Source of the DNA: an uncultured Bacillales bacterium
GTDB taxonomy: Bacteria > Bacillota_I > Bacilli_A > RFN20 > CAG-826
DNA length: 64,000 nt
Assembly: GCA_946414655.1 (NCBI GenBank)
Contig: CAMKPL010000001.1
Coordinates: forward strand, 47,081 to 111,080
Reading direction: 5' to 3'
Shown: positions 5,743 through 37,081 of the stretch, piece by piece
Numbering within the stretch: the first letter of the stretch is position 1
Layout of the letters: the number at the start of each line of letters is the position of its first letter
Notes under the pieces: model-generated
What the model was told of the DNA's origin: nothing
The model's input: the letters and a program-made list of their open reading frames with translations, nothing else
Databases searched by the model: none
Position numbers and translations under genes: made by a program

Positions 5743-6954
5743 TTATTCAGATTTATGAGTTTTCAAATATTGTTCAGCAAGGCCACCAACCGATGTTTCA
5801 CGGTAGTTCTTTGACATATCTTTACCGGTTTGAAGCATTGTTTCAACAATGCTATCGAATGAAACTTCGTGTGAATCGCTTGCATATTCGGCTAATCGGC
5901 AAGATGTAATTGCTCTTTGTGCAGCGACGGCGTTTCGTTCTATACATGGGATTTGAACATAACCCAAAACCGGGTCACAAGTGGATCCTAATGAATGTTC
6001 CATGGCAACTTCAGCTGCACACTCAATTGTAGCTAAATCAAGACCTTTAAGATACGCAAATGCTGCCGCAGCCATTGAACACGCTGAGCCAATCTCGGCT
6101 TGGCAACCAGCAACAGCCCCGGAAATTGAACCGTTTTGTTTAATGATATTTCCAATAACGCCAGCAACTGCCAAAGCATTAACCATCTTCTCGATGGAAT
6201 TGTGGTAGTTATCGTAACAATAACGCATCACTGCTGGAAGTGTTCCGGCCGCACCACATGTTGGAGCGGTGACAACAATATTACCACTAGCGTTTTCTTC
6301 GCCAGTTGCAAAAGCATAAGCAATGATTAAGCGATATGAACGAGCAATGCTTGTTTCGCTTTCTGCTTTCGGGGTCAAAAACGAACGGGCACGACGTTTG
6401 ACGTGGAGTGGTCCAGGAAGTTCTCCTTCTTTACGTAATCCAGCATCAATTGTATCCATCATTTGGTTGAAAACTTTTTCTAAATATTTAAAGATTTCTT
6501 CACCTTCATAATGACGAACATAATCGACTAAATCCCACCCATTTTCACCGCAAATCTTGGATATTTCACCAAAATTCTTTTCTGGATAAACCTCTTCTTC
6601 ATACTCTTCAACTTCACCTTCAATTTGGATTGCTCCGCCACCAGTGGAGATGACTTCTTTCTCCAGTGAACGGCCATCACCAAAATGAAGAACAAACTTC
6701 ATTGTGTTTGGGTGTTTAACAGGAGTTTTAATATCAAAATGAATCGCACAGTCAACTGGTGCCAATGTTTGTTGAATTGTTTTGTCGGTTAAGTGACCGC
6801 GTCCAGTTAACGCAAACGATCCGTAGAGATAAACATCATAACTGACGACATCAGGATAGTTCTTACGAAAATATTTCGCGGCACGATATGGCGCAATTGA
6901 ATGAGAGGAACTTGGTCCATTTCCAATACGATATAAATATCTCAGTGATTTCAT
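5743..6954 (-). CDS. sdaA: L-serine ammonia-lyase, Fe-S dependent, single chain
   Basis: IGNGPSSSH, VTAPTCGAAG, GCQAEIG, EHSLG.TCDPVLGYVQIPCIERN. Confidence 0.93.
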   Translation of the reverse strand: MKSLRYLYRIGNGPSSSHSIAPYRAAKYFRKNYPDVVSYDVYLYGSFALTGRGHLTDKTIQQTLAPVDCAIHFDIKTPVKHPNTMKFVLHFGDGRSLEKEVISTGGGAIQIEGEVEEYEEEVYPEKNFGEISKICGENGWDLVDYVRHYEGEEIFKYLEKVFNQMMDTIDAGLRKEGELPGPLHVKRRARSFLTPKAESETSIARSYRLIIAYAFATGEENASGNIVVTAPTCGAAGTLPAVMRYCYDNYHNSIEKMVNALAVAGVIGNIIKQNGSISGAVAGCQAEIGSACSMAAAAFAYLKGLDLATIECAAEVAMEHSLGSTCDPVLGYVQIPCIERNAVAAQRAITSCRLAEYASDSHEVSFDSIVETMLQTGKDMSKNYRETSVGGLAEQYLKTHKSE

Positions 6955-6982: not shown

Positions 6983-7014
6983 AAAATAAAAGCGAGTTCG
7001 GTGAGGAACTCGCT
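6983..7014 (-). terminator. Intrinsic terminator ending the catabolic operon
   Basis: GCGAGTTC-N6-GAACTCGC followed by TTTTA on the minus strand. Confidence 0.85.
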
Positions 7015-7036: not shown

Positions 7037-8047
7037 TTAACGGCGATCACTTGGGAGCTTATCGTGAACAAATAATGCCATAACAGCTTTAGCTGTGTGG
7101 ATTCTGTTCTCGGCTTCTTGATAAACCACTGATTGTGGTCCGTCGATAACCTCATCAACAACTTCGTTCACACGGTCGGCTGGAAGGGCGTGCATGTAAC
7201 GGCATGTTGGTTTGGCTAAAGCCATTTTTTCTGGTGTACACTTCCATGCTTTAAGAGCAAGTAATGCATCATCAACAACTGTGGTTGATTGGTTGGTGAC
7301 CCAAGAACCCCAGTTCTTTGGGAAGACGACATCAGCATCTTTATAAGCGGCATCCATGTCGTGAGTAATGGTTAATGAACCACCATTTTCAGCGGCATTT
7401 TTGCGGGCTTTTTCGATAACCCAGTCTGGTAAATCATAACCTTCTGGATATGCTAAGGTAACATCGATACCATAGCGTGGGAAAAGAAGAACTTGGCTAA
7501 CCGGAACTGAAATTGGTTTCTTGTGAGTTGTGGCCATCGCCCAAATAACAGAAACTTTTAAGTGCTTTGTTTTTCCGAATTCATCTTCAATGGTCATTAA
7601 GTCCGCAAGAGCTTGCATTGGGTGATATAAATCACATTGTAAGTTAATGATTGGGACTGTGGACCATTTGGCCATTTCGCGGATGTATTTGTTTCCTAAG
7701 CCCCAGTTACAATATCGGCAAGCGATCATGTGACCAAAGCTTGAAAGAATAACCGCGGTATCCTTGGCAGATTCACCATGAGCAATTTGCATCATGGATG
7801 TGTCAAGGAAGGTAGCGTGTCCGCCAAGTTGAGCCATACCACTTTCGAAAGAGTTACGGGTTCTTGTTGATTGTTCAAAGAACATCAAGAAACCTGTTTT
7901 TCCTTCTAACCATGGGGTCTTTTCGTTGGCGTAGAACGCATCTTTAAAGTCATGAGAGACTTTGAGCATGTAGTCGATTTCTTCTTTAGTAAAATCTTCT
8001 AAAGTAATGAGATGTCGACCGGCAAATCTTGGTGCTATTTTTTCCAT
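7037..8047 (-). CDS. Knotted-type (YgeW/AOTCase-like) carbamoyltransferase
   Basis: STRTR and HPMQALAD carbamoyl-phosphate motifs, MHALPADR, Pro-rich loop WAMATTHKKPISVP; context ygeY and carbamate kinase. Confidence 0.85.
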   Translation of the reverse strand: MEKIAPRFAGRHLITLEDFTKEEIDYMLKVSHDFKDAFYANEKTPWLEGKTGFLMFFEQSTRTRNSFESGMAQLGGHATFLDTSMMQIAHGESAKDTAVILSSFGHMIACRYCNWGLGNKYIREMAKWSTVPIINLQCDLYHPMQALADLMTIEDEFGKTKHLKVSVIWAMATTHKKPISVPVSQVLLFPRYGIDVTLAYPEGYDLPDWVIEKARKNAAENGGSLTITHDMDAAYKDADVVFPKNWGSWVTNQSTTVVDDALLALKAWKCTPEKMALAKPTCRYMHALPADRVNEVVDEVIDGPQSVVYQEAENRIHTAKAVMALFVHDKLPSDRR

Positions 8048-8059: not shown

Positions 8060-9280
8060 TTATTTTTGTTTTGCGAGGTTTTCAAGGTAAAGACCTGGAA
8101 TTGTCGCATAGAGAGCAGCACACACGACTAAGTCGCGTTTTCTGGTCTTTTCATTTGGGGCGTGTGCTTCTTTTTCATCGCCTGGACCAAAGCCAATGCA
8201 AGGAATTCCGAAGCGTCCCATAATGGAAACACCATTGGTGGAGAATGTCCACTTATCAATCACTGGGGCTTTCTTGAAGAGTCCTTCATAACCTTGTTTT
8301 AAGGATTGAACATAAATGGAATCTTCTGGAATAACCCAGGTTGGGAAGTAGCATTCTTGTTTATAAACAAGACCAGTATAAGCTGGGCGTTCATAATCAT
8401 ACATTGAAACTTCTGCTTTCGCACGTTTCACACTTGGTAAATTTTCAATTTCCGCAATGGAAGTCTTATCGTTTTCTCCGACTGTTAAACGACGGTCGAG
8501 AGAAATCCAGCATCCATCAGCGACAGCACAACGGCTTGGAGACTTGTGGAAGATTTGGGAAATTGTGACTGTTCCTTTACCGAGGAATGGGTCATAGGCT
8601 AAACCAGTTTCATTGAGTTTTTCAATGTCTTTGATGATGTCAGCCATTTTATAAATGGCGTTATCACCACGTTCTGGTGCACTACCATGGCAAGAGATAC
8701 CACGAACGTTGACTTTGATTTCCATACGTCCACGGTGTCCACGATAGATTTGGCAGCTTGTTGGTTCAGTTGAAACAACAAATTCTGGTTTAATCTTGTC
8801 TTGCTCAATAATGTACTTCCAGCAAAGACCATCACAGTCTTCTTCTTGGACAGTACCGGTCACAAGTAAGGTAAAGTCATCTTCAAGACCGAGATCTTTA
8901 ATGATTTTACCGGCATAGACCATTGAGGCCATACCACCTTCTTGGTCACTTGTTCCACGACCACCGATATATGTTTCATCTTCGAAACCTTCATATGGAT
9001 CAAACTTCCAGTTTTTGATTTCTCCGATACCAACGGTATCGATGTGTGCATCCATGGCGATTAAGTGCTTACCATGGCCAATGTAACCTAAGACGTTACC
9101 CATTGGGTCGATGTCGACTTTGTCGAAACCAACTTTGAGCATTTCTTCTTTAATGCGAAGAACAACTTCTTTTTCGCCACATGACTCAGATGGAATCTTC
9201 ACCATGTCGCGAAGGAATTTAGTCATATCTTTTTGATATGATTCAGCTTTCTTAAGGATTTCTTCAAATGAAACTTTCAT
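8060..9280 (-). CDS. ygeY: YgeY family M20 metallo-amidohydrolase
   Basis: [50 protein letters not shown]. Confidence 0.92.
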
Positions 9281-10650
9281 TATTTAATTTCCTTTCCGCG
9301 CATTTCTTTAATCTTCTTATCATATTCGAAGACTTTGTTGTATTCTTTTTCCCAGAATTCTGGATGTCTCATCTCATCAAGATAAGATTGCTTGTAACCA
9401 AATTTAAGCCAATCGGATTCTTTTTGCTTAAAGAGTTTCTCTTTAGCTTCTTTACCACGTGTGTCTAAGACATAACGAGTATCGGCTCCGGCAAAGACAT
9501 CTTGATACCAACGTTCTAAGACGTGGTCAGTCACTTCGAGTTCACGTTCGTGTAAGTTTTGAATAACGGATGGATAGCGGTCAAATGAGTCTGTTGCGAT
9601 AGTTACAACATTATCATCTGGTCCGAGTTTGAGGTATTTGGCCATTTTGATGGCACCTAAAATGTTGCAAATACCAGAAACACCAAAGAGGTTTTCCATT
9701 TCTTTGGCAACTTTGGCTGGAACACCATGTTTTTCAAGGATCTTTGCGCCTTCATGAACGACGGCTAAACCACGGACACAATCATCATCGATGATTTGAG
9801 TAATAAAGTCGGTTGTTAAGGCGTTGTGAATAAGAGTAATCATCTTATCGCCAATACCCTCGATTCGGTGTTGTCCTAAACCACCATTGGTGAGTGTTGA
9901 ACATTCATGTGGTTCAAGAGCAACAATCTTACATTCTGGGAAGACTTGTTTAATTTGGTCACCAGCAGCTAATGTACCAGCAGAACCTGGTGCAGAGCAG
10001 AAGCAAGCAATACGACCATTACCAATACCTTTGACAGCTTCAATACAGGAATTACCTGTAACGTGTCTATGGAAACGATAGTTTGGTAAGAGTTCGAATT
10101 GAGCAAGAGTTCTGTTTTTTGGATTCTTCTTTAATTCGTAAGTTCTTTCGAGAGTAAGAATAACGTCTGATTCGGAACCTGGAGTTAAATCGAGTTTGGC
10201 TCCGTATTTTGAGATACGTTCATATCTTTCTTTCGACATGTTGTCTGGCATGATAACGATGGCGTCATACTTCATTAAGTTAGTAATGTAGCTAACACCG
10301 ATACCAAAGTTACCAGTTGATGGTCCAAGAATTGTGTGTTTTCCTGGAATAATTTCCCCATCCACACAACCTTCCATAAGTGTGGCATAAGCTGGACCCA
10401 CTTTGTGGGAGCCAGATGGGAAGTTCTTACCAAATAAGACGACAATGTTGGCGTCAACACCGGTTAAGCCTTTTGGTAAGACAATTTTGTTAACCTCATT
10501 CTTTTCGTTTTTCCAAGTGATGTTGAAGAGGTTAATTGGATCAAGTTCGTTTTCTTTGATCGCTTTGAGGGCTTTCGCTCTCACTTCTGGGTCTTGGTGT
10601 GATGGATTGAGCATCTCATCATACGTTGGCCCAAATGGGATTTTTGACAT
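9280..10650 (-). CDS. Fold-II PLP enzyme, extended cysteine-synthase-like (456 aa), substrate unknown
   Basis: SGSHKVG (Schiff-base Lys), PSTGNFG, APGSAGT, HRIEGIG; long N- and C-terminal extensions. Confidence 0.8.
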
Positions 10651-10651
10651 A

Positions 10652-11896
10652 CTAAATAGCTCCTTTTTCTTTCAAAAATTTATCCAATTCTTCAAGGTTT
10701 GGTTTCATCGGTTCAGGCATGGATACCGCCTTTTGACCGTTGACTGGATCTTTTAGACCATTGCCAGTCACAATGGTTGTTACGGTTTCACCTGGTTTAA
10801 TAATACCTTGTTCCACCGCTTTCTTTATACCGGCTATTGCGGCCACGCCAGCTGGTTCTCCGAAGATACCTTCGGTTCTTCCAAGTAGCGACATGGCTTT
10901 AATAATATCACTATCAGGTACAGAAATCCAAGCACCATGCGATAAACTTATCGCATTTTGTGCTTTTACAGGGTTTCTTGGGATACCGACAGCGATAGAG
11001 TCGGCAAGGGTGTTTTCATCGGCTTCCTTAAGTGGTTCTCCTGTTTCAGAAGCAATCACAAATGGGGCACAGCCAGTTGATTGAACACCAAGGATTTTCG
11101 GGACTTTTTTAATCAAACCTAACTTAAAAAACTCGGCAAATCCCTTATAAACGCCACCAACTGTACATCCGTCACCAACAGATATCGCAACCCAATCAGT
11201 CGGTTCAAAGTTGAGTTGTTCAGCAATCTCCATCGAGACTGTTTTCTTTCCTTCGACCATGAATGGGTTGATGGCAGCATTACGATTGTACCAACCGTAT
11301 TTATCGATCGCTTGTTTAGAAAGTTGGAAAGCGGCTTTGTAGTCGCCATCAACCTTAACTAAAGTAGCGCCGTATAAACAAATTTGAGTGGCTTTGCCAA
11401 TCGGAGCACGTTTCGGAACAAAGATTACTGCTTTGAGTCCAATATGTGCGGCTTGGCAAGCACAGCTAGAGGCAGCATTACCGGTTGAAGAACAGGCAAT
11501 TGTTTTTGCGCCTGCTTCTACAGCTTTTAAAACAGCTACTCCACTAGCTCTATCTTTAGATGAACCACTTGGATTCAATCCGTCGTCTTTGACGTAGAGT
11601 TCTTTTACGCCAAGTTCTTTTTCAAGACGACGAGCTCGATAAAGTGGGGTCCATCCAACACGTAACATTTCATCAATGTGGTCTTCTTGAATGCCCATAA
11701 TTGGAGCATAACGCCACATTGAGTAGTTGCGATTATTTTCAAAATATTCGCGTGTTAAAACTTTCTTTAATGCATCGTAGTCATAAACGACATCGAGAAT
11801 GCCTTTTTCTCCGCAATGTGGACAAGTTAAGCCAACTTCGCCTTCCTTAAATTCGGCTCCACAAAGAGTGCATTTATAACCTTTAATGTAACTCAT
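10652..11896 (-). CDS. Threonine synthase-like fold-II PLP enzyme with N-terminal zinc ribbon
   Basis: CTLC..CPHC, LNPSGSSKDR, SSTGNAA, VGDG, TLADSI, EPAG, TGNGLKD. Confidence 0.85.
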   Translation of the reverse strand: MSYIKGYKCTLCGAEFKEGEVGLTCPHCGEKGILDVVYDYDALKKVLTREYFENNRNYSMWRYAPIMGIQEDHIDEMLRVGWTPLYRARRLEKELGVKELYVKDDGLNPSGSSKDRASGVAVLKAVEAGAKTIACSSTGNAASSCACQAAHIGLKAVIFVPKRAPIGKATQICLYGATLVKVDGDYKAAFQLSKQAIDKYGWYNRNAAINPFMVEGKKTVSMEIAEQLNFEPTDWVAISVGDGCTVGGVYKGFAEFFKLGLIKKVPKILGVQSTGCAPFVIASETGEPLKEADENTLADSIAVGIPRNPVKAQNAISLSHGAWISVPDSDIIKAMSLLGRTEGIFGEPAGVAAIAGIKKAVEQGIIKPGETVTTIVTGNGLKDPVNGQKAVSMPEPMKPNLEELDKFLKEKGAI

Positions 11897-12750
11897 TATT
11901 TCCTACCTCCAACAATGTCATCAATGAACTTATTAAAGATGTTCATCGAGACTGTTTGACGATATTCTTTATTACTTCTTTGGTCATCGATTGGAGCAAT
12001 AATTTGTGCAAAATCACCAGCAATTTGCGGTTGTTTTGCTTTTAATTCTTCTAATGAAAGACCAACAACTTTTGCTTCAAGTTCTTTGCTTCTTGCCGGA
12101 CGAACTGAGACCGAACCAAAGCAACAAGCAAACTTAGTAACAACGTTCTTCTTCACTTCGTAATAACCAGCAAAGGAGAGTTTAGAAATTGAATCAGCTC
12201 GACGTGAGCCAACCTTAAACCAAAGTTCGCCAGTGTATTCAATTTTTGGGAAAATAAGTTCAGTAATTAATTCATTTGGATGACGATCGACTTTACGAAC
12301 GCCAAGAACAAAATCTTTGGCATCAACTAAACGAACTCCATCAACTGATTCAAGTTTCACTTTTGCATCAAGAAGAGCGTCGATAACAATTGTGTCTCCG
12401 GCTGGAGAAGCATTCGCGATATTCCCAACAAGTGTGCAGAAATGTCGAATATTCGTTGATGCAACTTCACAAATCGCTTTTCTTAATAAAGAAGGACAAA
12501 GCTTATGGTGCTCAATTTCATGCATTGTTGCTGTAGCACCAATGTGAACGCCTTCTTTATCTTCGTAGATGTTTGCTAGTTCCTTAATATGTGAAACATA
12601 TAAAACATCTTTATCAAATAAAGGAGCATAACCAGCAACATTCTTTTTGATAACCATCATGTCGCTTCCACCGGCAACAATGTAAGCATCATGGTTAGCT
12701 AAAAAGTCGAGAGCTTCTTTTTTGGTATAAGCAATTTTCTTTTCTACCAT
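11896..12750 (-). CDS. Xanthine dehydrogenase-family FAD-binding subunit
   Basis: AGGSD, IRHFCTLVGNIANASPAGD, PIDDQRS. Confidence 0.9.
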   Translation of the reverse strand: MVEKKIAYTKKEALDFLANHDAYIVAGGSDMMVIKKNVAGYAPLFDKDVLYVSHIKELANIYEDKEGVHIGATATMHEIEHHKLCPSLLRKAICEVASTNIRHFCTLVGNIANASPAGDTIVIDALLDAKVKLESVDGVRLVDAKDFVLGVRKVDRHPNELITELIFPKIEYTGELWFKVGSRRADSISKLSFAGYYEVKKNVVTKFACCFGSVSVRPARSKELEAKVVGLSLEELKAKQPQIAGDFAQIIAPIDDQRSNKEYRQTVSMNIFNKFIDDIVGGRK

Positions 12751-13217
12751 AATCCAGCTCCTTTCTTACTGGCAATTACTACCGCTTGAACAATAGCTTG
12801 ATAACCAGTGCAGCGGCATAAATTACCACTCATATGTGCTTTAATTTCTTCCTCAGTTGGATGAGGATTATGAGAAAGTAGAGATTGAGCAGCAATAATC
12901 ATTCCTGGAGAGCAGAATCCACATTGGGATCCTCCGACTTCAGCAAATGCTTTTTGTAAAACATCAAATTGTTTGGTTTCTTTGAAACCTTCAATAGTCA
13001 CAATCTCGTGGCCTTCTACGTTAGCTAATGGAAGCAAACAGCTATTCACTGAATATCCATCCATTAAAACAACGCAGGCTCCACAAGATCCTTCGCCACA
13101 ACCTTCTTTTACTCCTTTTAATGAGAAATGATCACGAAGGACATCAATTAAACGCATGCTTGGGTCTAAATCAACAGCAACATCTTTGCCATTTAATCGA
13201 AACTTAATGCTTGTCAT
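12744..13217 (-). CDS. Xanthine dehydrogenase-family 2x[2Fe-2S] subunit
   Basis: GCGEGSCGAC, QCGFC, GNLCRCTGY. Confidence 0.93.
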   Translation of the reverse strand: MTSIKFRLNGKDVAVDLDPSMRLIDVLRDHFSLKGVKEGCGEGSCGACVVLMDGYSVNSCLLPLANVEGHEIVTIEGFKETKQFDVLQKAFAEVGGSQCGFCSPGMIIAAQSLLSHNPHPTEEEIKAHMSGNLCRCTGYQAIVQAVVIASKKGAGLW

Positions 13218-15303
13218 GATTAATCACCTCCATGATGTATTCTGGTGTAGCAGGAATCTTATTCACTTTGTGACCAATTGCTTGTTCAATGGCAAGCGCA
13301 ATCGCTGGAGCTCCACCAACGAGAGTTAATTCACCCATTCCTTTAGCGCCGTTAGCACCATAAATAAATGGGTTATCAATAAATGCTGTCTCCATAGGAG
13401 GAGCATCTTCAAATGTCGGAATAATGTAGTCAGATAATGAACGATTACGGAATTTACCATCTTTAATTCCCATGTGTTCAAGATAACCATAGCCTAAACC
13501 TTGGAGTAATCCTCCATCAGCCTGGCCAACGGCAATACGTTCATCAACAACTCGACCAACATCATAAGTTGACCAACAATGATCAACTTTAATTTGGTAA
13601 GTTACTGGATCAAATGAGACTTCAACAACGTTGACACCCCAAGAATAGGATGGATAAGCGTCACCTTGCATTGTATCTTCATCCCAATGGATATAACTTG
13701 GTCCGACATAACTTTCAACATGTTCTTGTCGAACTCCACTCTTCCAGATTTTCTTTAATTGTTTAGCAGCTTTTTCCATTAGGAAACCAACAATAATAAT
13801 TGTTCTAGAAGCCGCTGTTGGTCCGGAGTCAGGAGTGTGATCAGTATCAGCCGCCTCCATTGTGCATTGTTCAGCTGGTAAACCAAGTGTATTAGACACG
13901 ATACGTGCTAAAGTTGTACGGTTTCCTTGACCAAAGTCAGCACTTGAAGCATAAACATGGATATGATCATTCTCATCTTTGATGAGCTTGACTTTACCAT
14001 TAATAATTGTTGATTCACCAGAACCAGTAAATCCACATCCGTGAAGGAATAAGGACATACCAATTCCTTTGTTAGAGCCTGGTTGGGCGTATTCAACTAC
14101 TTTGCGTTTGTAGTCGGACATTTCCATGGCTTTGTCTACTAACTGAGGAAGAATAATTGGGTCATGGAATTCACCAGAATTTGTTGTGATATCTCCTTGT
14201 TTTGCAAGGTATTTCATTCTTAACTGTAATGGATCAACTCCAAGTTCTTTAGCAACGTGATGGATAAACATTTCCATTGCAAAGATTGTTTGTGGAGCAC
14301 CAAATCCACGGAACGCGGCAGTCGGAACGGTGTTTGTACAATAAACATCTCCAGCCACATCTAGGTATTCAAATACGTATGCATTGCATGAAGCGATGAG
14401 CGCACGTGATAAGACAACACCAGAGCAGCCTTTATAAGCACCACCATTAAGTTTGACACGAATCCTTAAACCAAGAATTTCGTTATTCTTGCCGATAAAT
14501 GCTTCGTATGTTGAAACTGATGGGTGACGTTTTGTTGTATAAGCAATATCTTCAAAACGTTCATAACACATCTTCACTGGACGATGAATTTTATTAACCG
14601 CCACGGCAAGTTGTGAACCCATTAAACTTGGATAGTGTTCTTTGCCACCAAATGCTCCGCCAACAGCAGGTTGTTTAACACGAACTTTTTCTGGAGCAAT
14701 ACCAAGAGCTCGAGCAACAGCCTTTCTAATATAGAATGGACATTGCATTGAACCAGTTAAATAGAACTTATCATCTTCATCGATATAACAAAGAATACCT
14801 TGAGGTTCGATGTAGGCTTGTTCTTGATAACCGGTCTCATAAGTTTCTTTAATTGTTTTAACAGCATTTTTCTCAGCCTTCGAAAAATCACCTTTTGTAA
14901 ATTCTTTATGAATATATGAATTCACAAGATCGTAAACTGGTTTTTCTTCTTCATAAATAACCGAGATTTGCTGGCATAATTTGTGTAAAACCTCTTTATT
15001 TTCTCCAACAAATAAACCAATTGCTTCACCGACATAATTAACTTCTTTATCAGCAAAAATTGGCCAATCGGAGAAGATAATATTAACAACATTTTCACCA
15101 GGAATATCTTTTGCTGAAATCCAATAATAACCTTCTGGAAGTTCAGGCAGTTTGATTTCCTTTATCTTTCCTTTAGCAATTGTTGATCGCACGGTTTGAG
15201 CATAAAGCATTCCTGGTAACACAAAGTCATCAGTAAACTTTGCTTCTCCGCGGATCTTTTCAGGGAAGTCAATTTTTGGTGTACTTGACTTATATAGTTC
15301 CAT
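13204..15303 (-). CDS. Xanthine dehydrogenase-family molybdopterin subunit (XdhA-like, 699 aa)
   Basis: GGAFGGKE, AFRGFG, PTAASR, GAKGMGE. Confidence 0.92.
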   Translation of the reverse strand: MELYKSSTPKIDFPEKIRGEAKFTDDFVLPGMLYAQTVRSTIAKGKIKEIKLPELPEGYYWISAKDIPGENVVNIIFSDWPIFADKEVNYVGEAIGLFVGENKEVLHKLCQQISVIYEEEKPVYDLVNSYIHKEFTKGDFSKAEKNAVKTIKETYETGYQEQAYIEPQGILCYIDEDDKFYLTGSMQCPFYIRKAVARALGIAPEKVRVKQPAVGGAFGGKEHYPSLMGSQLAVAVNKIHRPVKMCYERFEDIAYTTKRHPSVSTYEAFIGKNNEILGLRIRVKLNGGAYKGCSGVVLSRALIASCNAYVFEYLDVAGDVYCTNTVPTAAFRGFGAPQTIFAMEMFIHHVAKELGVDPLQLRMKYLAKQGDITTNSGEFHDPIILPQLVDKAMEMSDYKRKVVEYAQPGSNKGIGMSLFLHGCGFTGSGESTIINGKVKLIKDENDHIHVYASSADFGQGNRTTLARIVSNTLGLPAEQCTMEAADTDHTPDSGPTAASRTIIIVGFLMEKAAKQLKKIWKSGVRQEHVESYVGPSYIHWDEDTMQGDAYPSYSWGVNVVEVSFDPVTYQIKVDHCWSTYDVGRVVDERIAVGQADGGLLQGLGYGYLEHMGIKDGKFRNRSLSDYIIPTFEDAPPMETAFIDNPFIYGANGAKGMGELTLVGGAPAIALAIEQAIGHKVNKIPATPEYIMEVINHDKH

Positions 15304-16400
15304 TATTCTTCCACCTTTGTATACGTGAGAGCTTTAACTGGACACTTAGAAACACAAAGTCCACAGCGGAAACATTTCTCACTGTTGAATTTTGGTTTTC
15401 CATCCATTTCAATGGCGAAGTATGGACAAACTCTAGAACATGTTCCACAACCTGTGCACTTACTGGCATCAAGTTTTGGAGTTTCCCCCATACCAAACAT
15501 GGCATGGTTTTCTAATTGAGTATCAATAACTTCTTGGACAGATTTAAATCCATATTTTTCAAGAGTTGCTGGAAGGTCAGCAAGAATCTTGGCATAAAGT
15601 TCTTTGCCTCTAAGCATTGCTGCCGAGAGCATTTGAACACCGCTTGCGCCAGCGAGAAGGAATTCAATAACGTCGCTAGCTGAAGCAATTCCACCGACAC
15701 CAATTACAGTTAATGATGGTTCGGCTTGTTTAATTGTATAAACAGTTGCTAAAGCAATGTTCTTAATATAAGGTCCACTTGTCCAAGCAAAACCTTTCGC
15801 GTTTCCATAGATAATGCTACGGGAAGCAATGTCAATCTTCATTGAAGGACCAAGGGAGTTAACGGCCACAACACCATTAGCACCATTAGCTTTGATTGTA
15901 TGAGCAAAACCTTCTGGATCTGGCATGTGGGCACTAATTTTCATATAGAATGGTTTCTTGGTGTGCTTACGAATTGTGGCAACAGTTTCACCAAGCGCAT
16001 TCAAGTCGTTTCCAACGTAGTGAGTAGAAACTTCAAATGCATCAGCAAATTTATCAAGAAGAGGAATTAAAATTTCCATATCTTCTTTGGTATAACCAAC
16101 TGAAATTATAAGAGGTTTACCAACTGACTTCTTTTTGTAATATGGTAAGAACTCGTTGATCCACTTTTCCTTAGTATATTCTGTCCATAATTCACAGTTC
16201 ATGATGTAATCACGATCACCATAAATACATGGGTGTGGGATGTGAGCATCCTTTGTGGAGATTGTTTTGGAAACAATCGCACCAAGTCCAGCGACTTGTT
16301 CTAACCAGAGCATTTTCTCGGCGTCACCAACAAGTGGACCGGCAGCTGGCATGAGTGGGTTTTCTAATTTTAACCCATCAAATTTTGTTGAAATATCCAT
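15303..16400 (-). CDS. PreA/dihydropyrimidine-dehydrogenase-like FMN enzyme with C-terminal 2x[4Fe-4S] and an altered catalytic loop
   Basis: NPLMPAAGP, KTIS, MKIS, GVGGI, two CxxCxxCxxxCP motifs; start 16400 with GGAGG RBS. Confidence 0.8.
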   Translation of the reverse strand: MDISTKFDGLKLENPLMPAAGPLVGDAEKMLWLEQVAGLGAIVSKTISTKDAHIPHPCIYGDRDYIMNCELWTEYTKEKWINEFLPYYKKKSVGKPLIISVGYTKEDMEILIPLLDKFADAFEVSTHYVGNDLNALGETVATIRKHTKKPFYMKISAHMPDPEGFAHTIKANGANGVVAVNSLGPSMKIDIASRSIIYGNAKGFAWTSGPYIKNIALATVYTIKQAEPSLTVIGVGGIASASDVIEFLLAGASGVQMLSAAMLRGKELYAKILADLPATLEKYGFKSVQEVIDTQLENHAMFGMGETPKLDASKCTGCGTCSRVCPYFAIEMDGKPKFNSEKCFRCGLCVSKCPVKALTYTKVEE

Positions 16401-16402
16401 CG

Positions 16403-17692
16403 TTATTCCTCCTTCACTTTGGACCATAAATTACTCGCGAATTTGCGAGCTTCAATAACTTCATTAATGAGCTTTTTGCTGGTAATTTTGTAATCTTTGA
16501 CACGTTTTGTACCAGCAGTATAAACATCGCTTGGTTTTAAAGCTGGGAATAATCCGTAGAAGAGATGACCTAGTGCATTTGAAGCATCCATTTTTGTAAA
16601 TGGAGTGTACTTCACGCGCATAAAGTCAGCTTCATAACCTTTCTCAAATTTTCCAAGTTTTAAGCCTAAGCGATCTCCGACATATTTATAAGAGTTTTCA
16701 ATCATTTGATGAACATCTCCAAGGCCAATACCTAAAGGAGATTCGCTCTTCAAATGACCAGTATAAAGAACATTGTTATATTCGTTAGCCATATTAGAAC
16801 TTAAGCCGTCGTTTCCAACCATAACTGGAATTCCATAATCTAAATATTTACGGACATTTGGAAGACCAACAGCATTGTTCATATTGGATGTTGTATTAAC
16901 AACCATGTAGCAGCCTCTTTCCTTAATAATTTGAAGTTCTTCATCATTAAGATGAACACCATGAACAATTAAGGAGTTTGGAACAAGTAATCCAAAATCA
17001 TCAAAGCGTTTAATGATTGGCTTTTTGTATTTTTCTTCTGAATCTGATTCATCATCTAGTGCCTCAGCAACGTGAACGTGTAAAGGAACTCCGTTTTGTG
17101 CTTTTGCAACTCTTCTAAGTGTTGCGTTTGATAGTGACATTGAAGCGTGCAATCCAAATAAACCTTCACCAGGATAACGTTTAGCAAAATTTTTGTTTTC
17201 TTTAATACAATCGCTAACATTATAACGATCGCTTGTTTCAAAGCAGAAGATTCCATGCATTTTGAGTGGTCCGACAAAAGCTTTTCTTAAAGACTTCAAA
17301 GAGCCAATAATTTCTCCTGATGCATGGTGGTCAATAACTGATGTTACACCGTTTAAAAGGAATTCTTCACCGGCACAAATTGCGGAATAGTAAGTTTCTT
17401 GATTAACAAGTTTTGCATCAATCTTCCACCACATTTGATCCAAGATTTGCTGGAAATTTTTTGGATTAAACGGTAAAGCAAGACCTCTAGCAAAAATCGA
17501 ATAAATGTGAGCGTGGGCACACACAAATGTAGGAAGAAGTAGGTCGCCTTTATAATCTTCGACTGATTGGTATTCGCCTTTTGGGAATTCGCTCATTGGG
17601 CCACATTTCACGATTTTGTCATCAAAAAGTAGATAACCGCATTCGATGTAGTTTTTGTAGTCATAAATTCGAGCATTAATAATTGCTTTCAT
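16403..17692 (-). CDS. SsnA-like metal-dependent amidohydrolase
   Basis: CAHAHIYS, DHHAS, GLHAS, HVHVAE, VHGVH, GNDG. Confidence 0.85.
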   Translation of the reverse strand: MKAIINARIYDYKNYIECGYLLFDDKIVKCGPMSEFPKGEYQSVEDYKGDLLLPTFVCAHAHIYSIFARGLALPFNPKNFQQILDQMWWKIDAKLVNQETYYSAICAGEEFLLNGVTSVIDHHASGEIIGSLKSLRKAFVGPLKMHGIFCFETSDRYNVSDCIKENKNFAKRYPGEGLFGLHASMSLSNATLRRVAKAQNGVPLHVHVAEALDDESDSEEKYKKPIIKRFDDFGLLVPNSLIVHGVHLNDEELQIIKERGCYMVVNTTSNMNNAVGLPNVRKYLDYGIPVMVGNDGLSSNMANEYNNVLYTGHLKSESPLGIGLGDVHQMIENSYKYVGDRLGLKLGKFEKGYEADFMRVKYTPFTKMDASNALGHLFYGLFPALKPSDVYTAGTKRVKDYKITSKKLINEVIEARKFASNLWSKVKEE

Positions 17693-18999
17693 TATTTAAC
17701 CTCCCCACAATTTAAGTTCTTTCCCTGATGTGGAACAATTTTTCGATTTTTTAACACAAATTGTCCACGAACAAGCACTGTTTCAAATTCACCAGAACCA
17801 AGAATTCCATCATAAATGGAGTAATCACAAGTACCGTGGTTTTCATTTTCAAAATAGTCTTCTTTTTCTAAAAACACCGACAAATCTGCATCCATTCCAA
17901 CTTTGATTTCTCCCTTGGTTGGGAAATCTTGAATTTTTGCAGAATTAAATGACATTTTGTCGATGATTTCATCACCAAATCGTCGATACATTGTTGAGAA
18001 TGAATGCTCAATTCCTCCAACACCGAGAGGGAATCCTTTTAGAGTTGGATAATCTTTGTCTTTCTTCATAAATGAACAATGGTCGGTGCCAATTGTTTCA
18101 ACATCTTTATAGTAGGCGATTAAAAGTTGTCGTTCTCTTTCACTTCTTAGTGGAGGTGCAAACGTAAATAGTTTTCCATTCTCACCTTCTAAAACAGAGT
18201 TATTAAAGATGAAATATTGTGGACAACTCTCAACAAATAAATTCTTATTAAGAATGTCTGGGAATTGTTCTTTAAGTGCTTTTAATGTTTCACCACTTGA
18301 GCAATGAACCATATAGAAGTTTCCGCCAGTTTCACGAACAAGTTTAGCAAGTTTTAGTGCCTCACTTGTTTCACTCATTGATGGGCGAGAAACTGGTAAA
18401 TCTTTATAAGTATAAGAATCGCGAAGATCGATTAAATCATCGTTTTCAATGTGCGCTTCGATAAGAACGTTGTACTTCTTAGAAAGTTGTAATAATTTTT
18501 CGATATCTTTCTCATAAGTACGTCGACCAGTGTCACTATAAGTTGTAAACAACTTAATTGTTCTCATTCCAAGTTTAACAACGGTTTTGACGTATTCTTC
18601 TAAATCGCCATTTGGCATCTTAATGCAAGCGTGCATGTGATAGTCAACAAGTGACTTCTTCGCGAGTTCAAGACGTTCATAAAACGACTTCTCTAAATCT
18701 TTGGCATTACTAGTTGGATCAAGGAAATCAACAATGGTTGTTACACCGCCATAAGCGGCACAAACTGAACCACTATAAAAGTCATCCACCGAAGTTAATC
18801 GCCCACAGTTCAGTTCAAAATGAACATGTGGATCAATTAATCCAGGAAGAACTTTCTTTCCTTTTGCGTCAAGAACTTCTTTAGCTTCGACTTCTTCTGT
18901 TCCAACGTAAGAAATTTTCTCACCTAAAACAGCCACATTGACGTTTTGCCATTTGTGGTCAATCCAAACTAATCCGTTCTTTATTAATAAGTCGTGCAT
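17692..18999 (-). CDS. Dihydropyrimidinase/hydantoinase (HyuA-like) cyclic amidohydrolase
   Basis: PGLIDPHVHF, AAYGGVTT, IKLF, HIEN, VHCS, GTDHCSF. Confidence 0.85.
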   Translation of the reverse strand: MHDLLIKNGLVWIDHKWQNVNVAVLGEKISYVGTEEVEAKEVLDAKGKKVLPGLIDPHVHFELNCGRLTSVDDFYSGSVCAAYGGVTTIVDFLDPTSNAKDLEKSFYERLELAKKSLVDYHMHACIKMPNGDLEEYVKTVVKLGMRTIKLFTTYSDTGRRTYEKDIEKLLQLSKKYNVLIEAHIENDDLIDLRDSYTYKDLPVSRPSMSETSEALKLAKLVRETGGNFYMVHCSSGETLKALKEQFPDILNKNLFVESCPQYFIFNNSVLEGENGKLFTFAPPLRSERERQLLIAYYKDVETIGTDHCSFMKKDKDYPTLKGFPLGVGGIEHSFSTMYRRFGDEIIDKMSFNSAKIQDFPTKGEIKVGMDADLSVFLEKEDYFENENHGTCDYSIYDGILGSGEFETVLVRGQFVLKNRKIVPHQGKNLNCGEVK

Positions 19000-21314
19000 T
19001 ATTTCTTTTCTTTGACCGCCTTAAAGATTCTTTCAGGAGTAATTGGTAAGTGATGGATTCTTACGCCAAAGGCGTTATAGACAGCGTTACATAAAACAGC
19101 TGGTGGAGTATCAATACCAATTTCACCAACAGATTTCGCACCAAATGGTCCTGTTGGTTCATATGAATCAGCAAATTCGGTGACTAATTCACCAACTTCA
19201 GCGCGGGTTGGAATGTGATAGACATCGAAGTTTGTTGTTAATAGTTTTCCTTTGTCGTTATAAATGACTTCTTCAGAAGAGGCCATTCCATAACCTTGGA
19301 TAATTCCACCTTCAACTTGGCCTTTAGCCAGCATTGGGTTAATTGTTGTACCACAGTCAGTTACTGTGACGTACTTAATCATCTTGTATTCGAATGTTTC
19401 AGTATCGAATTCGAATTCACCAAACGCAGCCATAAATGGAGGTGGAGAAACATGTCCATGGAAGGATTCGGTAACAGCGATTTGGCGGGTGTCTTGGTTA
19501 TATAAACGATTGGTTGCTAAATCTTCTAAGGAGAGAGATTTTTCACCAGATGTAAACATCTTTCCGTCAAATTCAACAGTGCCGACTTTCACATTCATGT
19601 ATTCAGCAGCTTCTTTAACAAGTCTTTCTCTCATCTTAGATGCAGCGTTCCATGCGGCATTACCACTAACATAAGTTGTGGAGGATGCATAAGCACCACA
19701 GTCATATGGAGTTAAATCTGTATCAGAAGAATAGATAATGACTTTATCAACAGTGGTTTGAAGTTCTTCAGCAACGATTTGAGCAATCATTGTGTCGGAA
19801 CCTTGGCCAATATCGGTCGCACCAACAGTGACCATGTAAGAACCACCATCATTGAGTTTAATTGTACAAGAACCCATGTCTAAGAATGGAATGCCAGAAC
19901 CTTGCATAGCAATAGCGCAGCCAACTGAACGAACTTTATGTGGTCCGACTTCTTTTCTTGGCCATTTCTTATCCCATTCAATGAGTTCACGACCACGTTT
20001 AATACAATATGGAAGCTTGCAGCTTTCCATAATCATCGCAGTACCTTCTGTACCTTCACCCATAATTTCAAAGATTGGGGAAGTTTCTTTTTCCTTCATT
20101 GAGTTCAGCTCACGAAGTTTAATTGGATCCATACCCATCTTTTCTGCAAGTTCATCTATGATGGATTCAACAGCATAGTTTCCTTGAATAGCACCGTATC
20201 CACGATACGCACCAGCAGAAACGTGGTTGGTATAAACAACGTGGCCACCAAATTTCACAGCCTTAACTTTGTTATATAAAGGAAGAACCTTTGAACCAAC
20301 AATCATAAAGACTGTTAAGGCGTGTTCACCGTAAGCACCAGTATCACTTAAAGCACGGCAATCAATGGCTTGAATAATACCATCCTTTGTTGCGCCGACT
20401 TTGAGAGTAATTTTCATTGGGTGACGTGTGTATGAACATCCAAATACTTCTTCACGAGTGAAGACACACTTACTTGGTTTCTTTGTTCGTAATGTAACTA
20501 AAGCGCAGAACATTTCACCATGGAAAGCTTGTTTACCACCAAATCCACCACCGACACGTGGTTTAACAACACGAATCTTTTCTACAGGAAGACCCAATGT
20601 CTTTGACATAATTCTTCTCATGTGGAATGGGGTTTGGGTTGTTGAATAAACAACTAAACGGTTATGTTCATCTAAGCGAGCATTACATGAGTGCGGTTCA
20701 AGCATCGCGTGAGCTTGGGCTTGAGAATAGAAAGTGTCTTCAACAACATAGTCACATTTCTTTAATTCTTCAGCGACATTACCAACTTCCATCTCATAGG
20801 AGGCAGCTAAATTCTTCTTTGGATCAAAGCCAATTGGGAACATTTCATGAATGCCATCTTCTGGGTGGATGACAGATTTATTTTCATAAGCTTTTTCAAA
20901 GTCGAGAACTGGTTCAAGAACTTCATAATCGACTTTGATTTTCTTCATTGCTTCTAAAGCAACTTCTTCGCTAACTGCAGCAACAGCAGCGACTTCGTCT
21001 CCTACATAACGAGCGTATTCATCAAAGATGAACTTATCATGTGGAGACGGTTCTGGATAACCTTGTCCAGCACGTGTAAAGGCAACATGTGGAACGTTAT
21101 CTTTGGTGAGAATACAAGCGACACCAGGAACTTTTTCCGCTTCACTAACATCGATTGATTTAATACGAGCAAAAGCGTGAGGACTTCTTAGTAGCTTAAT
21201 TACTAAGGAGTTTTGTTGAGCAAGATCATCAGTGTAGAAAGAACGACCTTGCATTAAGCCTTTACCATCAAGACTTGGAGTAATGTTATTAACAACACGG
21301 AAATTCTTTTTCAT
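18999..21314 (-). CDS. XdhD-like molybdopterin-binding subunit (771 aa)
   Basis: GGGFGGKQ, AYRGYG, GATDIGQG, GAYASS, GAKSVGE. Confidence 0.9.
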   Translation of the reverse strand: MKKNFRVVNNITPSLDGKGLMQGRSFYTDDLAQQNSLVIKLLRSPHAFARIKSIDVSEAEKVPGVACILTKDNVPHVAFTRAGQGYPEPSPHDKFIFDEYARYVGDEVAAVAAVSEEVALEAMKKIKVDYEVLEPVLDFEKAYENKSVIHPEDGIHEMFPIGFDPKKNLAASYEMEVGNVAEELKKCDYVVEDTFYSQAQAHAMLEPHSCNARLDEHNRLVVYSTTQTPFHMRRIMSKTLGLPVEKIRVVKPRVGGGFGGKQAFHGEMFCALVTLRTKKPSKCVFTREEVFGCSYTRHPMKITLKVGATKDGIIQAIDCRALSDTGAYGEHALTVFMIVGSKVLPLYNKVKAVKFGGHVVYTNHVSAGAYRGYGAIQGNYAVESIIDELAEKMGMDPIKLRELNSMKEKETSPIFEIMGEGTEGTAMIMESCKLPYCIKRGRELIEWDKKWPRKEVGPHKVRSVGCAIAMQGSGIPFLDMGSCTIKLNDGGSYMVTVGATDIGQGSDTMIAQIVAEELQTTVDKVIIYSSDTDLTPYDCGAYASSTTYVSGNAAWNAASKMRERLVKEAAEYMNVKVGTVEFDGKMFTSGEKSLSLEDLATNRLYNQDTRQIAVTESFHGHVSPPPFMAAFGEFEFDTETFEYKMIKYVTVTDCGTTINPMLAKGQVEGGIIQGYGMASSEEVIYNDKGKLLTTNFDVYHIPTRAEVGELVTEFADSYEPTGPFGAKSVGEIGIDTPPAVLCNAVYNAFGVRIHHLPITPERIFKAVKEKK

Positions 21315-21766
21315 TATTTCTTACCTCCAAGATATTTTTCGACAGCGTTACCTTGGCTTTGTAAACCAGTACAACGACATAAGTTTCCAACTAAGTAATC
21401 ATTGATTTCTTGACGAGTTGGATGTGGGTTTTCTTCTTTTAAGGCGTGAACAACTAGGGCGAGAGCTGCTGAGCAATATCCACATTGGTCGGCGCCTTCT
21501 TTAGCAAAATATTCGGAAAGTTGAGCAGCTTCTTCTTGGATGGATTCAACAGTCATAACTTTCTTTCCTTCAATTGAAGCTGTTAGAACAGAACAAGATA
21601 GAGTTAGTTTTCCATCAACGAGAACTGTACAAGCTCCGCAAGCGGAGGCGTTACAACCTTTCTTAACTGATTTGACTCCGTTAGCGCGAAGTGAATCAAG
21701 AAGGTATTCACCTGGTTTAACATAGTAGACAACATCTAAACCATTTAAATTGAATTTGACTTCCAT
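21314..21766 (-). CDS. 2x[2Fe-2S] subunit of the second molybdo-hydroxylase
   Basis: GCNASACGAC, QCGYC, GNLCRCTG. Confidence 0.92.
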   Translation of the reverse strand: MEVKFNLNGLDVVYYVKPGEYLLDSLRANGVKSVKKGCNASACGACTVLVDGKLTLSCSVLTASIEGKKVMTVESIQEEAAQLSEYFAKEGADQCGYCSAALALVVHALKEENPHPTRQEINDYLVGNLCRCTGLQSQGNAVEKYLGGKK

Positions 21767-22543
21767 TTATTTAACCTCCTCTAAAGCGCGTTTTAAGTAA
21801 ACACGAGCAAGATGGCTTCGGTATTCACCTTTGGCGCTCATTGAGTCGCCAAGTTTTAACTCTTGCATAGCAAGCTCAACGGCTTGATCAACATCCTTGC
21901 CACCTTCATTTAAATATTTCATCGCTCCTTCGCATAAACATGCAACTAATGGACGAGAACCAACCACAATTCGGTAATCTTTGTCTTTAGTGACACAGAC
22001 ATTCAGAATTGGGTAATCTAGAGCAGTCATTTTAACTTTCTTAAAGAAAGATTTGGCAGAACTCTTATAAATACGAACTTCAGTTAAAATTCCATCAGCA
22101 AATCCTGGTTTCTTCACGTATTCATCAAGTGATATGACTTCTTCTGGATAGAAAACTAAATCAACTTTAAATCCAAGAAGAGCAGTAATCACATCAGAGA
22201 AACCATATTTTCCGTAAACGGAACCTCCGATTGTGGCGCTATTGCGGAAAGCTGGACCCATGATTTGATGAACCGCATCAGAGAGAACTCCGCCACCAAT
22301 CTTTTTAATAATTGGAGAGGTTTCAAAAGCTCTTTGAGTAACCAACGCGCCAACTGAAACATAATCTTTTTCTTCTTTAATTTGGTCTAAACCTAGACGA
22401 GAAAGATCGATTAATTTGTCGACGTCGCCATTTCCTTTCTTTAACCATAAACCACCACCAAGAATTTTATTTTTTGGTGATGATTTTTTGAGGGAGTATG
22501 CTTCTTCCAAAGAAGCTGCACGAACATATTCGTTTACTTTCAT
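21767..22543 (-). CDS. YgfM-like FAD-binding subunit
   Basis: ILGGGLWL, FRNSATIGGSV, SAKGEYR. Confidence 0.85.
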   Translation of the reverse strand: MKVNEYVRAASLEEAYSLKKSSPKNKILGGGLWLKKGNGDVDKLIDLSRLGLDQIKEEKDYVSVGALVTQRAFETSPIIKKIGGGVLSDAVHQIMGPAFRNSATIGGSVYGKYGFSDVITALLGFKVDLVFYPEEVISLDEYVKKPGFADGILTEVRIYKSSAKSFFKKVKMTALDYPILNVCVTKDKDYRIVVGSRPLVACLCEGAMKYLNEGGKDVDQAVELAMQELKLGDSMSAKGEYRSHLARVYLKRALEEVK

Positions 22544-23170: not shown

Positions 23171-23262
23171 GCAAGCTCATAAAAAGAAAATTAAATAATG
23201 CAAATATGTGCGTGTTTTGCTGTAGATTTTGTATAATATTGAAGTACGAAAGAGGTAGAAAA

Positions 23263-26470: not shown

Positions 26471-26487
26471 TTAAGACTCCTTTTCTG

Positions 26488-32467: not shown

Positions 32468-32591
32468 ATGAAAATACAGGCAATTCCTGATTGTTTGTTT
32501 AAAAATGACGATAATTTATTCTTAAAAACCATATAAGGATAAATACGACGGTTATTTCTTTTAAAGAAATGTTGTGATATATTCTATAACT

Positions 32592-35522: not shown

Positions 35523-35523
35523 T

Positions 35524-37078: not shown

Positions 37079-37081
37079 TCT

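Follow-up and report, generated by a model that had tools for sequence, protein, structure and literature searches.

Urate can be broken down by a reductive pathway that was worked out only in 2023-2025 and now serves in surveys of uric-acid-lowering gut bacteria and in their engineering. Urate passes through 2,8-dioxopurine, its dihydro form, 5-ureidomethylhydantoin, 2,3-diureidopropionate and a mono-ureido intermediate to 2,3-diaminopropionate (DAP), which is finally turned into pyruvate (PMC12507026; bioRxiv 2025.04.24.650524; commentary PMC12990295). In the published final steps, YgeY yields DAP and DpaL, also named YgeX, converts it to pyruvate (PMC12507026; bioRxiv 2025.04.24.650524). 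The intermediates of the pathway have been proposed to be R (D) configured, a question that is still open (PMC12990295). The hydantoinase HyuA is specific for the D form; DpaL accepts either isomer of DAP (PMC12507026), with Asp120 as its second catalytic base (PMC4000059). We analyzed a stretch of 64 kb from an uncultured Bacillales bacterium (contig CAMKPL010000001.1, positions 47,081 to 111,080; hereafter the window), in which two genes for fold-II pyridoxal-phosphate (PLP) enzymes stand where ygeX would be expected. One of them encodes a protein like threonine synthase (TS), which we call ThrC-like, and the other a long protein like cysteine synthase, which we call CysK-like. In the literature searched, we found no description of a threonine-synthase- or cysteine-synthase-like replacement for YgeX.

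Two PLP genes at the ygeX position of purine operons

The minus-strand genes from 23115 to about 7037 of the window form one tightly packed operon, in the order MocA-like, first molybdenum (Mo) enzyme, HyuA-like, SsnA-like, PydA/UacX-like, second Mo enzyme, ThrC-like, CysK-like, YgeY and OTC-like carbamoyltransferase (Table 1). Overall, this looks like a complete reductive (2,8-dioxopurine-type) purine/urate operon, with divergent homologs of SsnA and HyuA and with YgeX as the sole missing member. A tblastn search with E. coli YgeX found no dpaL/ygeX homolog in the 64-kb window, and its only match was the ThrC-like gene, with 26% identity over 200 aa. A preliminary description of this DNA had reported two fold-II genes with intact Schiff-base lysines, coupled to ygeY, with no hom, thrB or cysE nearby, and had placed them where DpaL should be. 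All of this was borne out. The lysines are K114 in the ThrC-like and K83 in the CysK-like protein. The gene for the FAD subunit of the second Mo enzyme (FAD2) overlaps the ThrC-like gene in a TAATG, the two PLP genes are one nucleotide apart (TAG-T-ATG, with AAAGGAG upstream), and the CysK-like gene overlaps ygeY in another TAATG. No hom, thrB or cysE was found among the open reading frames (ORFs) examined, which cover the 64 kb except for a few short ones. We read the two genes as a non-orthologous displacement of DpaL/YgeX that would convert YgeY-derived DAP to pyruvate and ammonia, and we put the probability of this reading at roughly 0.6.

Orthologs of the window genes, from near-identical down to 74% identity, occur in more than 500 species-representative genomes, and each of the two families is present in at least several hundred species. 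To compare gene neighborhoods, species-representative genomes were scanned with three anchors, namely the CysK-like protein, YgeY and a clade-B ThrC-like protein, and the best 80 matches of each were taken, giving 240 loci. Each locus comprised the match with 10 kb of flank, and ygeX was scored as present or absent within that stretch; such best-match sampling is phylogenetically uneven. The loci anchored on the CysK-like protein came from rumen Bacilli, Izemoplasmatales, Acholeplasmatales and other Bacillota. In these loci the ThrC-like gene was found wherever the contig reaches, the genes for YgeY and the carbamoyltransferase follow, and ygeX was found in none (0/80). Some of them carry a true YgeW (66% identity to E. 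coli) in the order ygeW-CysKlike-yqeA-ThrClike-ygeY. In most Firmicutes and Tenericutes loci that reach that far, the genes of the second Mo enzyme immediately precede the ThrC-like gene.

The loci anchored on YgeY contained both types of cluster. Here ygeX alone was found in 53 loci, 46 of them from Gammaproteobacteria, and the full pair alone in 17. Two further loci had only the CysK-like gene, at a contig edge. Both ygeX and the full pair were present in two (L137, Desulfuromusa; L147, Geobacteraceae), ygeX and a CysK-like gene at a contig end in one (L159), and neither in five, three of which lie on truncated contigs. Outside the Gammaproteobacteria, pair-type loci accounted for 17-19 of 34 loci and ygeX-type loci for 7-10. 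The clade-B ThrC-like anchor reached at least 12 phyla, including Desulfobacterota, Marinimicrobia, WOR-3, SAR324, Spirochaetota, Acidobacteriota, Bacteroidota, Betaproteobacteria, Cloacimonadota, Verrucomicrobiota and Chloroflexota. Among these 80 loci ygeX appeared once, on the Desulfuromusa contig (L137/L167), and a CysK-like gene lay no more than 10 kb away in 54.

Gene order tells the same story at closer range. Two Firmicutes loci (L140, L149) read 'Mo2-FeS2-FAD2-ygeX-(hyuA)-ygeY-OTC', whereas the window reads 'Mo2-FeS2-FAD2-ThrClike-CysKlike-ygeY-OTC'. The OTC-like carbamoyltransferase, a Firmicutes-type counterpart of YgeW, is of the same type in the ygeX-type Firmicutes clusters. In a Desulfobacterota-type series, the other genes stay unchanged while ygeX stands alone (L150, ygeX-ygeY-yqeA-ygeW-...), then together with the pair (L147, divergent pair + ygeX-ygeY-...; also L137), and finally gives way to the pair alone (L146, divergent pair + ygeY-...). 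Such a series is what non-orthologous displacement looks like when an intermediate state has survived. It also bears on an earlier suggestion that the pair acts by elimination on a longer diamino acid from a different ring system, which now looks unlikely because YgeY of the window and of E. coli share 72% identity and because ygeX-type and pair-type loci have the same other cluster genes.

The pair may also have a counterpart in a published expression study. A cluster of Xianfuyuplasma coldseepsis comprises xanthine dehydrogenase genes, purine deaminases, OTC, a 'cysteine synthase', a 'threonine synthase' and an aminohydrolase; these genes were up-regulated together both in situ and in culture, and the cluster responded to thiosulfate (PMC8397711). 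By gene list alone, this cluster matches our Izemoplasmatales loci, and the co-expression agrees with operon membership. In Izemoplasma sp. B36, an adenine deaminase gene lies between FAD2 and the ThrC-like gene.

Several loci were set aside as clues to function. The neighbors in L077, L172, L177, L190 and L225 were uninformative, and the CysK-like proteins of L085/L086, at 33% identity among F420 genes and without a ThrC-like partner, were too distant to be used. As a side observation, a purine cluster from Cloacimonadota (L083, 3983-20009) contains three OTC-like carbamoyltransferase paralogs and a carbamate kinase next to YgeY, both PLP genes and two Mo enzymes, and three other loci (L226, L216, L245) contain two such paralogs each. 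Judging from its gene content, the organism of L083 may phosphorolyse both ureido groups for ATP.

Active sites of the two families

The solved structures nearest to the ThrC-like protein are class I threonine synthases (33-36% identity, TM ~0.83). It is named 'threonine synthase' in databases and scores above the cut-off of the thrC model TIGR00260 (211.2 bits vs 167.1). Its score is under the cut-off for PRK08197 (273.7 bits vs 303) and far under that for the DpaL family model NF006058 (59.8 bits vs 276). We compared its residues in about 170 orthologs, consisting of 71 from Firmicutes and Tenericutes, 20 from Desulfobacterota, Cloacimonadota and Lentisphaeria, and 80 from a further dozen phyla. 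The zinc-ribbon cysteines C9/C12/C25/C28 and the Schiff-base K114 (in SSKDR) are invariant in 71/71 orthologs, and the carboxylate loop S137-T138-G139-N140 is invariant as well. The differences lie elsewhere in the site. Residues R160, N188, S155 and T88 (T. thermophilus TS numbering) are invariant in five solved threonine synthases, and after the structural work of Omi and Murakawa we take them to be the binders of the substrate phosphate. They align with M213, D242, A208 and A141 of the ThrC-like protein. Across the orthologs, the R160 position holds M, L, T or S, the N188 position D, and the S155 and T88 positions A. The invariant Asp lies in a 'GDG[CV]' loop, and no Arg occupies the R160 position in any of the 71+20+80 orthologs. 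Because these residues are replaced in about 170 orthologs, the family is, as far as sequence can tell, not an ordinary threonine synthase. The loss of the Arg and the gain of an invariant Asp suggest that the phosphate pocket has been rebuilt to suit a neutral or cationic beta substituent and not a phosphate ester.

The C-terminus of the ThrC-like protein gave a smaller observation. In close relatives it ends in 'EKGAI/EKGVI', and within these codons lies AAAGGAG, the site at which ribosomes would bind for the CysK-like gene (window 10652-10680, minus strand). The tail is probably conserved at the nucleotide level. We had considered docking of this tail, whose 'KGAI' recalls the C-terminal Ile that CysE inserts in CysK, and rejected it as a general feature, as the tail is kept in close relatives only.

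The CysK-like protein has the CysK fold in its AlphaFold model (pLDDT 93, TM ~0.85 on CysK structures). K83 aligns with the CysK Schiff-base lysine and lies in an 'SHKVG' motif, the Gln of 'AQFELL' (carboxylate contact) and the Ser of 'GVSG' (PLP N1) align with their CysK counterparts, and the PLP-phosphate loop is also recognizable. Outside the CysK core there are helical extensions of about 60 aa at the N-terminus and about 90 aa at the C-terminus, and the family is 456-500 aa long. Its motifs are 'HKVG' around the Lys, 'PSTGN[FY]' in the Asn loop ('PSTGNFG' in the window protein) and 'IEGIGDK'; the wider 'TG[AS]HKVG' (residues 79-87) is closer to the motif of tryptophan synthase beta than to 'SVKDR' of CysK. 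Two clades can be told apart: clade A of Firmicutes and Tenericutes is highly conserved (66-96% identity), and clade B of other phyla has 33-42% identity to the window protein. Since the scores against the CysK models are far under the cut-offs (TIGR01139, 133.3 bits vs 350.95; TIGR01136, 133.1 vs 344.15) and the motifs and terminal extensions are distinct, the family appears not to be an ordinary cysteine synthase. Against the DpaL model TIGR03528, the protein scores 21.8 bits (cut-off 532). We found no family member with a solved structure or a functional name; the database names are 'pyridoxal-phosphate dependent enzyme' (NCBI) and 'cysteine synthase' (JGI). Nor was a fusion of the ThrC-like and CysK-like proteins found; the long matches were a plant-type CysK in tandem, a chimera with an ABC ATPase and calls that probably stem from read-through.

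These results leave little room for the idea that the two genes merely ride on the operon, either as ordinary threonine and cysteine synthases or as enzymes that mobilize sulfur or selenium for the Mo cofactor. The TIGR00260 score (211 bits vs 167), the database names 'threonine synthase' for the one protein and 'pyridoxal-phosphate dependent enzyme' (NCBI) or 'cysteine synthase' (JGI) for the other, and the thiosulfate response of the X. coldseepsis cluster would fit it. Against it stand the loss of the presumed phosphate-site residues in every ortholog, the CysK-model scores far under cut-off and the lack of hom, thrB and cysE among the window ORFs examined. An accessory role would also not give near-exclusion with ygeX at the same cluster position. 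We consider such a role very improbable.

Substrate, product and division of labor

What the pair does has to be inferred from these observations together with its contexts. In the window, the Mo hydroxylases, the UacX-like reductase, the SsnA-like and HyuA-like ring hydrolases, the carbamoyltransferase with carbamate kinase, and YgeY would together deliver DAP, probably as the D isomer. The PLP module would then turn DAP into pyruvate and ammonia, be it directly or by way of L-serine and its deamination by an Fe-S serine dehydratase. The ThrC-like protein, which keeps the carboxylate and PLP machinery of threonine synthase, would be the most likely DAP-converting enzyme. The CysK-like protein would be a second enzyme, with beta-replacement, a stereochemical step or the handling of aminoacrylate as its options.

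A separate context helps to narrow the substrate. In a Rhodocyclaceae metagenome-assembled genome, a compact operon (L192, 6728-14007) encodes a TRAP solute-binding protein, an M20 amidase of the carbamoylase/allantoate-amidohydrolase family, a CN-hydrolase, the ThrC-like and CysK-like proteins and SdaA. The sdaA start overlaps the CysK-like stop, and the SdaA scores above the TIGR00720 cut-off. The ureido-cleaving enzymes of this operon are unrelated to YgeY and YgeW, and the PLP pair is the same. Because the decarbamoylases differ while the pair stays the same, the comparison points to a de-carbamoylated diamino acid, diaminopropionate, as the intermediate common to L192 and the purine operons. 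From its genes, the L192 operon looks like a self-contained route for the uptake and degradation of a ureido or diureido amino acid.

The comparison is also relevant to a substrate that still bears its ureido group, for example albizziin (2-amino-3-ureidopropionate), which is isosteric with O-phosphoserine but uncharged and could undergo beta-elimination or beta-replacement. The rebuilt pocket, with its Arg lost and Asp gained, would suit a neutral, hydrogen-bond-donating ureido group. Urea-like nucleophiles can be used by CysK homologs, the matches of the CysK-like protein include O-ureido-L-serine synthase (3x43), and the CysK-like gene often adjoins a carbamoyltransferase gene. However, YgeY and the carbamoyltransferase, or the two other decarbamoylases of L192, are always present and would already strip both ureido groups, and ygeX-type and pair-type clusters are alike in all other genes. 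Action on a ureido intermediate is thus a poor candidate, and we think it quite unlikely.

For the product, the neighborhood of sdaA is informative. This gene adjoins pair-type clusters in three unrelated lineages, namely rumen Bacilli (the window and its close relatives), Desulfuromonadales (L163) and Betaproteobacteria (L192/L194). Within the flanks, it was found in 0/56 ygeX-carrying loci of the YgeY-anchored scan, and most pair-type loci also lack it. The displacement of DpaL could take the form of a serine route. The pair would exchange the amine of DAP, or D-DAP, for water in a beta-replacement that gives L-serine, whether C-alpha is inverted or not, and pyruvate would come from a separate Fe-S L-serine dehydratase. 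In the ThrC-like protein, the invariant Asp would then act as the base, a part that falls to the released phosphate in the water addition by threonine synthase. Threonine synthase is a fold-II enzyme specialized in adding water to a PLP-bound unsaturated intermediate, which fits this chemistry, as do the three lineages, the overlap in L192 and the contrast with ygeX-carrying loci. The absence of sdaA from most pair-type loci does not fit it, a terminator-like hairpin parts sdaA from the operon in the window, and there is no evident gain over direct elimination. A route to serine had been raised in the preliminary description, partly on the strength of nearby serA and serC; the sdaA adjacency gives it some support, whereas the serA/serC block beside the purine cluster is not conserved in other genomes. 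On balance we regard the serine route as possible but less likely than not, and we favor neither it nor direct beta-elimination by the ThrC-like enzyme over the other.

Stereochemistry offers another explanation for two genes within the displacement reading. One enzyme might racemize D-DAP to L-DAP for an L-specific lyase, or there might be one enzyme per enantiomer, as the preliminary description had proposed. The proposed but open R (D) configuration of the intermediates (PMC12990295) leaves a place for such a step, as does the D-specificity of HyuA, with DpaL taking both isomers (PMC12507026). A racemase with a stereospecific fold-II lyase is moreover known in anaerobes, CuyB/CuyA (PMC11193023). 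The active sites do not favor such a division. The 'TDGNHG' loop of DpaL, which holds Asp120, aligns with S-T-G-N in both the ThrC-like and the CysK-like protein, so that both have a Thr at the second-base position; in serine racemase, the second base is Ser84. Several lineages have the ThrC-like gene alone nearby, and a stereospecific hydantoinase should yield one enantiomer only. Overall, a stereochemical division of labor seems unlikely.

The most specific proposal that we can make concerns the 'GDG[CV]' ThrC-like family. It could be a new threonine-synthase-derived, DAP-converting PLP activity, with an Asp of the active site standing in for the phosphate of the substrate or product, and with its CysK-like partner it could take D-DAP to L-serine, or to pyruvate without free aminoacrylate. 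We put this forward tentatively and with considerable doubt. Members may exist in a cultured gut bacterium. Bilophila wadsworthia is reported to have a 52-kDa PF00291 protein (E5Y7Z0) and a 'threonine synthase' (E5Y294) that lies beside a tricarboxylate transporter and showed no cysteate lyase activity (PMC11193023); E5Y294 and E5Y7Z0 could be candidates for the two families.

Several points weigh against the displacement of DpaL by the pair. Mutual exclusivity with dpaL, a check proposed in the preliminary description, held for the loci anchored on the CysK-like protein and, with one exception, for those anchored on the ThrC-like protein, but it is not strict: ygeX co-occurs with pair genes in two to three loci (L137/L167, L147 and possibly L159). 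The functions of ygeX and the pair may therefore not be strictly identical. A dpaL gene could also lie elsewhere in pair-type genomes, of which the 10 kb around each match were read. A single DpaL suffices to take DAP to pyruvate, so the second gene is unexplained. No fold-II gene other than the ThrC-like one lies within 10 kb in nine or more long loci, in some of which it comes directly after ygeY (L225, L245, L174, L185), and the role of the CysK-like protein may thus be separable. Given these loci and the CysK-like gene in 54/80, it is the ThrC-like enzyme that is constant, often accompanied by the CysK-like enzyme. Some pairs sit among unrelated genes (L077, L172). Finally, the case for a lost phosphate site depends on the phosphate-binding roles presumed for the four threonine synthase residues.

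If the proposal for the 'GDG[CV]' family is correct, anaerobic purine fermentation outside Gammaproteobacteria would end mainly through this module, and surveys based on dpaL would miss a large share of uricolytic bacteria. One survey requires ygeX/dpaL at >25% identity, which would under-count pair-type organisms; one pathway paper counts any PF00291 neighbor as 'YgeX', which would conflate the pair with DpaL. In databases, two large enzyme families appear to bear wrong or merely generic names. Of these, the ThrC-like family is seen in rumen Bacilli, Izemoplasmatales, Desulfobacterota, Spirochaetota, Bacteroidota, Cloacimonadota, Acidobacteriota, Verrucomicrobiota and others. The chemistry of the pair would bear on the open stereochemistry of the last intermediates and on how anaerobes handle the toxic amino acid diaminopropionate.

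The rest of the window and comparison with known systems

The features of the window are collected in Table 1. YgeY is the presumed producer of DAP, and the PydA/UacX-like protein the presumed dearomatizing reductase; UacX is defined in PMC12507026. Of the two xanthine-dehydrogenase-family enzymes, the first has a Mo subunit with 36.5% identity to E. coli XdhD. The second has a 699-aa Mo subunit with 25-26% identity to XdhA/XdhD, under every family cut-off, and in Izemoplasma the second type is the sole Mo enzyme in the stretch examined. The second enzyme may be the urate reductase of the pathway and the 771-aa enzyme an ordinary purine hydroxylase.

Table 1. Genes and sites of the 64-kb window (positions of the window; bits are given against the model cut-off)
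Feature	Position	Strand	Remarks
SdaA, Fe-S L-serine ammonia-lyase	5743..6954	-	possible downstream partner if the product is serine
Terminator-like hairpin	6991..7014	-	9-bp stem, T-rich tail; between carbamoyltransferase gene and sdaA
OTC-like carbamoyltransferase	7037..8047	-	35% identity to YgeW
YgeY, M20 ureido-group hydrolase	8060..9280	-	TIGR03526 692.7 bits vs 321.5
Long CysK/CBS-like fold-II PLP enzyme, 456 aa	9280..10650	-	PALP E=1e-21
ThrC-like zinc-ribbon fold-II PLP enzyme, 'GDG[CV]' family, 414 aa	10652..11896	-	Pfam PALP E=5.9e-77
Second xanthine-dehydrogenase-family enzyme	11896..15303	-	Mo 13204-15303, 2Fe-2S 12744-13217, FAD 11896-12750
PydA/UacX-like dihydroorotate-dehydrogenase-family reductase	15303..16427	-	C-terminal ferredoxin domain
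SsnA-like aminohydrolase	16403..17692	-	29% identity to E. coli SsnA; 325 bits vs 444
HyuA-like hydantoinase/dihydropyrimidinase	17692..18999	-	27% identity to E. coli HyuA; 227 bits vs 393
First xanthine-dehydrogenase-family enzyme and maturation gene	18999..23115	-	Mo 18999-21314, 2Fe-2S 21314-21766, FAD 21767-22543
MocA-like cytidylyltransferase	22540-23115	-	
Promoter-like site ahead of mocA	23170-23142	-	
Carbamate kinase, divergently transcribed	23206..24180	+	53% identity to YqeA; 386 bits vs 358
serA, serC, DUF1015 protein, NAD(P) glutamate dehydrogenase	24252-29051	-	in a row beside the purine operon
Rnf-type complex, then ApbE	32574-38353	+	RnfC, RnfD, two Rnf-Nqr membrane subunits
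Subtilase (S8), 1230 aa	53363-57055	-	Big_2 and Big_3 domains
PreA-like gene adjoining PreT/GltD-like gene	57231-59712	-	DHODH family + 4Fe-4S; Fer4_20 + pyridine-nucleotide oxidoreductase
Match of E. coli YgfK	58798-59631		30% identity
Fic-domain protein	59827-60864	-	VbhT-like (E=3e-19 vs PDB 3shg); 104-aa ORF in front

Beyond the operon, the serA-to-glutamate-dehydrogenase row forms a serine-biosynthesis block. To judge from their domains, the PreA-like and PreT-like genes resemble either a dihydropyrimidine dehydrogenase of two subunits or a YgfK-like reductase that has been split. In the Rnf-type complex, the RnfG position is held by a 180-aa ORF without a Pfam match; the complex is consistent with a ferredoxin-based anaerobe and could feed the ferredoxin-type reductases of the operon. 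The Fic-domain protein and the ORF in front of it may be a toxin with its antitoxin, and the subtilase is probably a surface or secreted protease.

The pathway itself is a known one, here with a widespread, uncharacterized terminal module and possibly new PLP chemistry. Among known systems, DpaL/YgeX belongs to the same superfamily, takes the same place beside ygeY and the carbamoyltransferase gene in syntenic clusters and presumably acts on the same substrate. The ThrC-like protein nevertheless shares only 26% identity over 200 aa with it, the DpaL models score far under their cut-offs, and two genes stand for one. Class I threonine synthases (T. thermophilus, M. tuberculosis, B. subtilis, A. 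aeolicus) share the fold, the Schiff-base Lys and the S-T-G-N loop with the ThrC-like protein, which differs by an extra N-terminal Cys4 zinc ribbon, by the change of R160/N188/S155/T88 to M/D/A/A and by its catabolic purine operon. The core of CysK and cystathionine beta-synthase shares the fold, the Lys, the Asn loop, the Gln, the PLP-phosphate loop and the Ser at the pyridine N with the CysK-like protein. Yet CysK is a single domain of about 300-320 aa with 'VKDR' and 'TSGNTG', whereas the CysK-like protein has 456-500 aa, 'HKVG' and 'PSTGN[FY]' and no cysE nearby.

Two further systems have two genes where one might be expected. In the cysteate pathway, an anaerobe uses CuyB and CuyA, a D-specific fold-II lyase, where one lyase would be expected, for stereochemical reasons (PMC11193023). 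This is an analogy only: CuyB is a PLP-independent racemase, and there is no homology to the present pair. The locus L082, from an unrelated genome, has the same two-gene architecture, with a long CysK-like protein (44% identity) and a PRK08197-type zinc-ribbon 'threonine synthase' (33% identity to the ThrC-like protein). The latter keeps the Arg and has GGGTG instead of GDGC, and the purine context is lacking; we rejected L082 as a distant example of the pair and regard it as a different system, probably with a different function. Taken together, the module would resemble DpaL in function, while by descent it appears to be neither DpaL nor a bona fide threonine synthase nor CysK.

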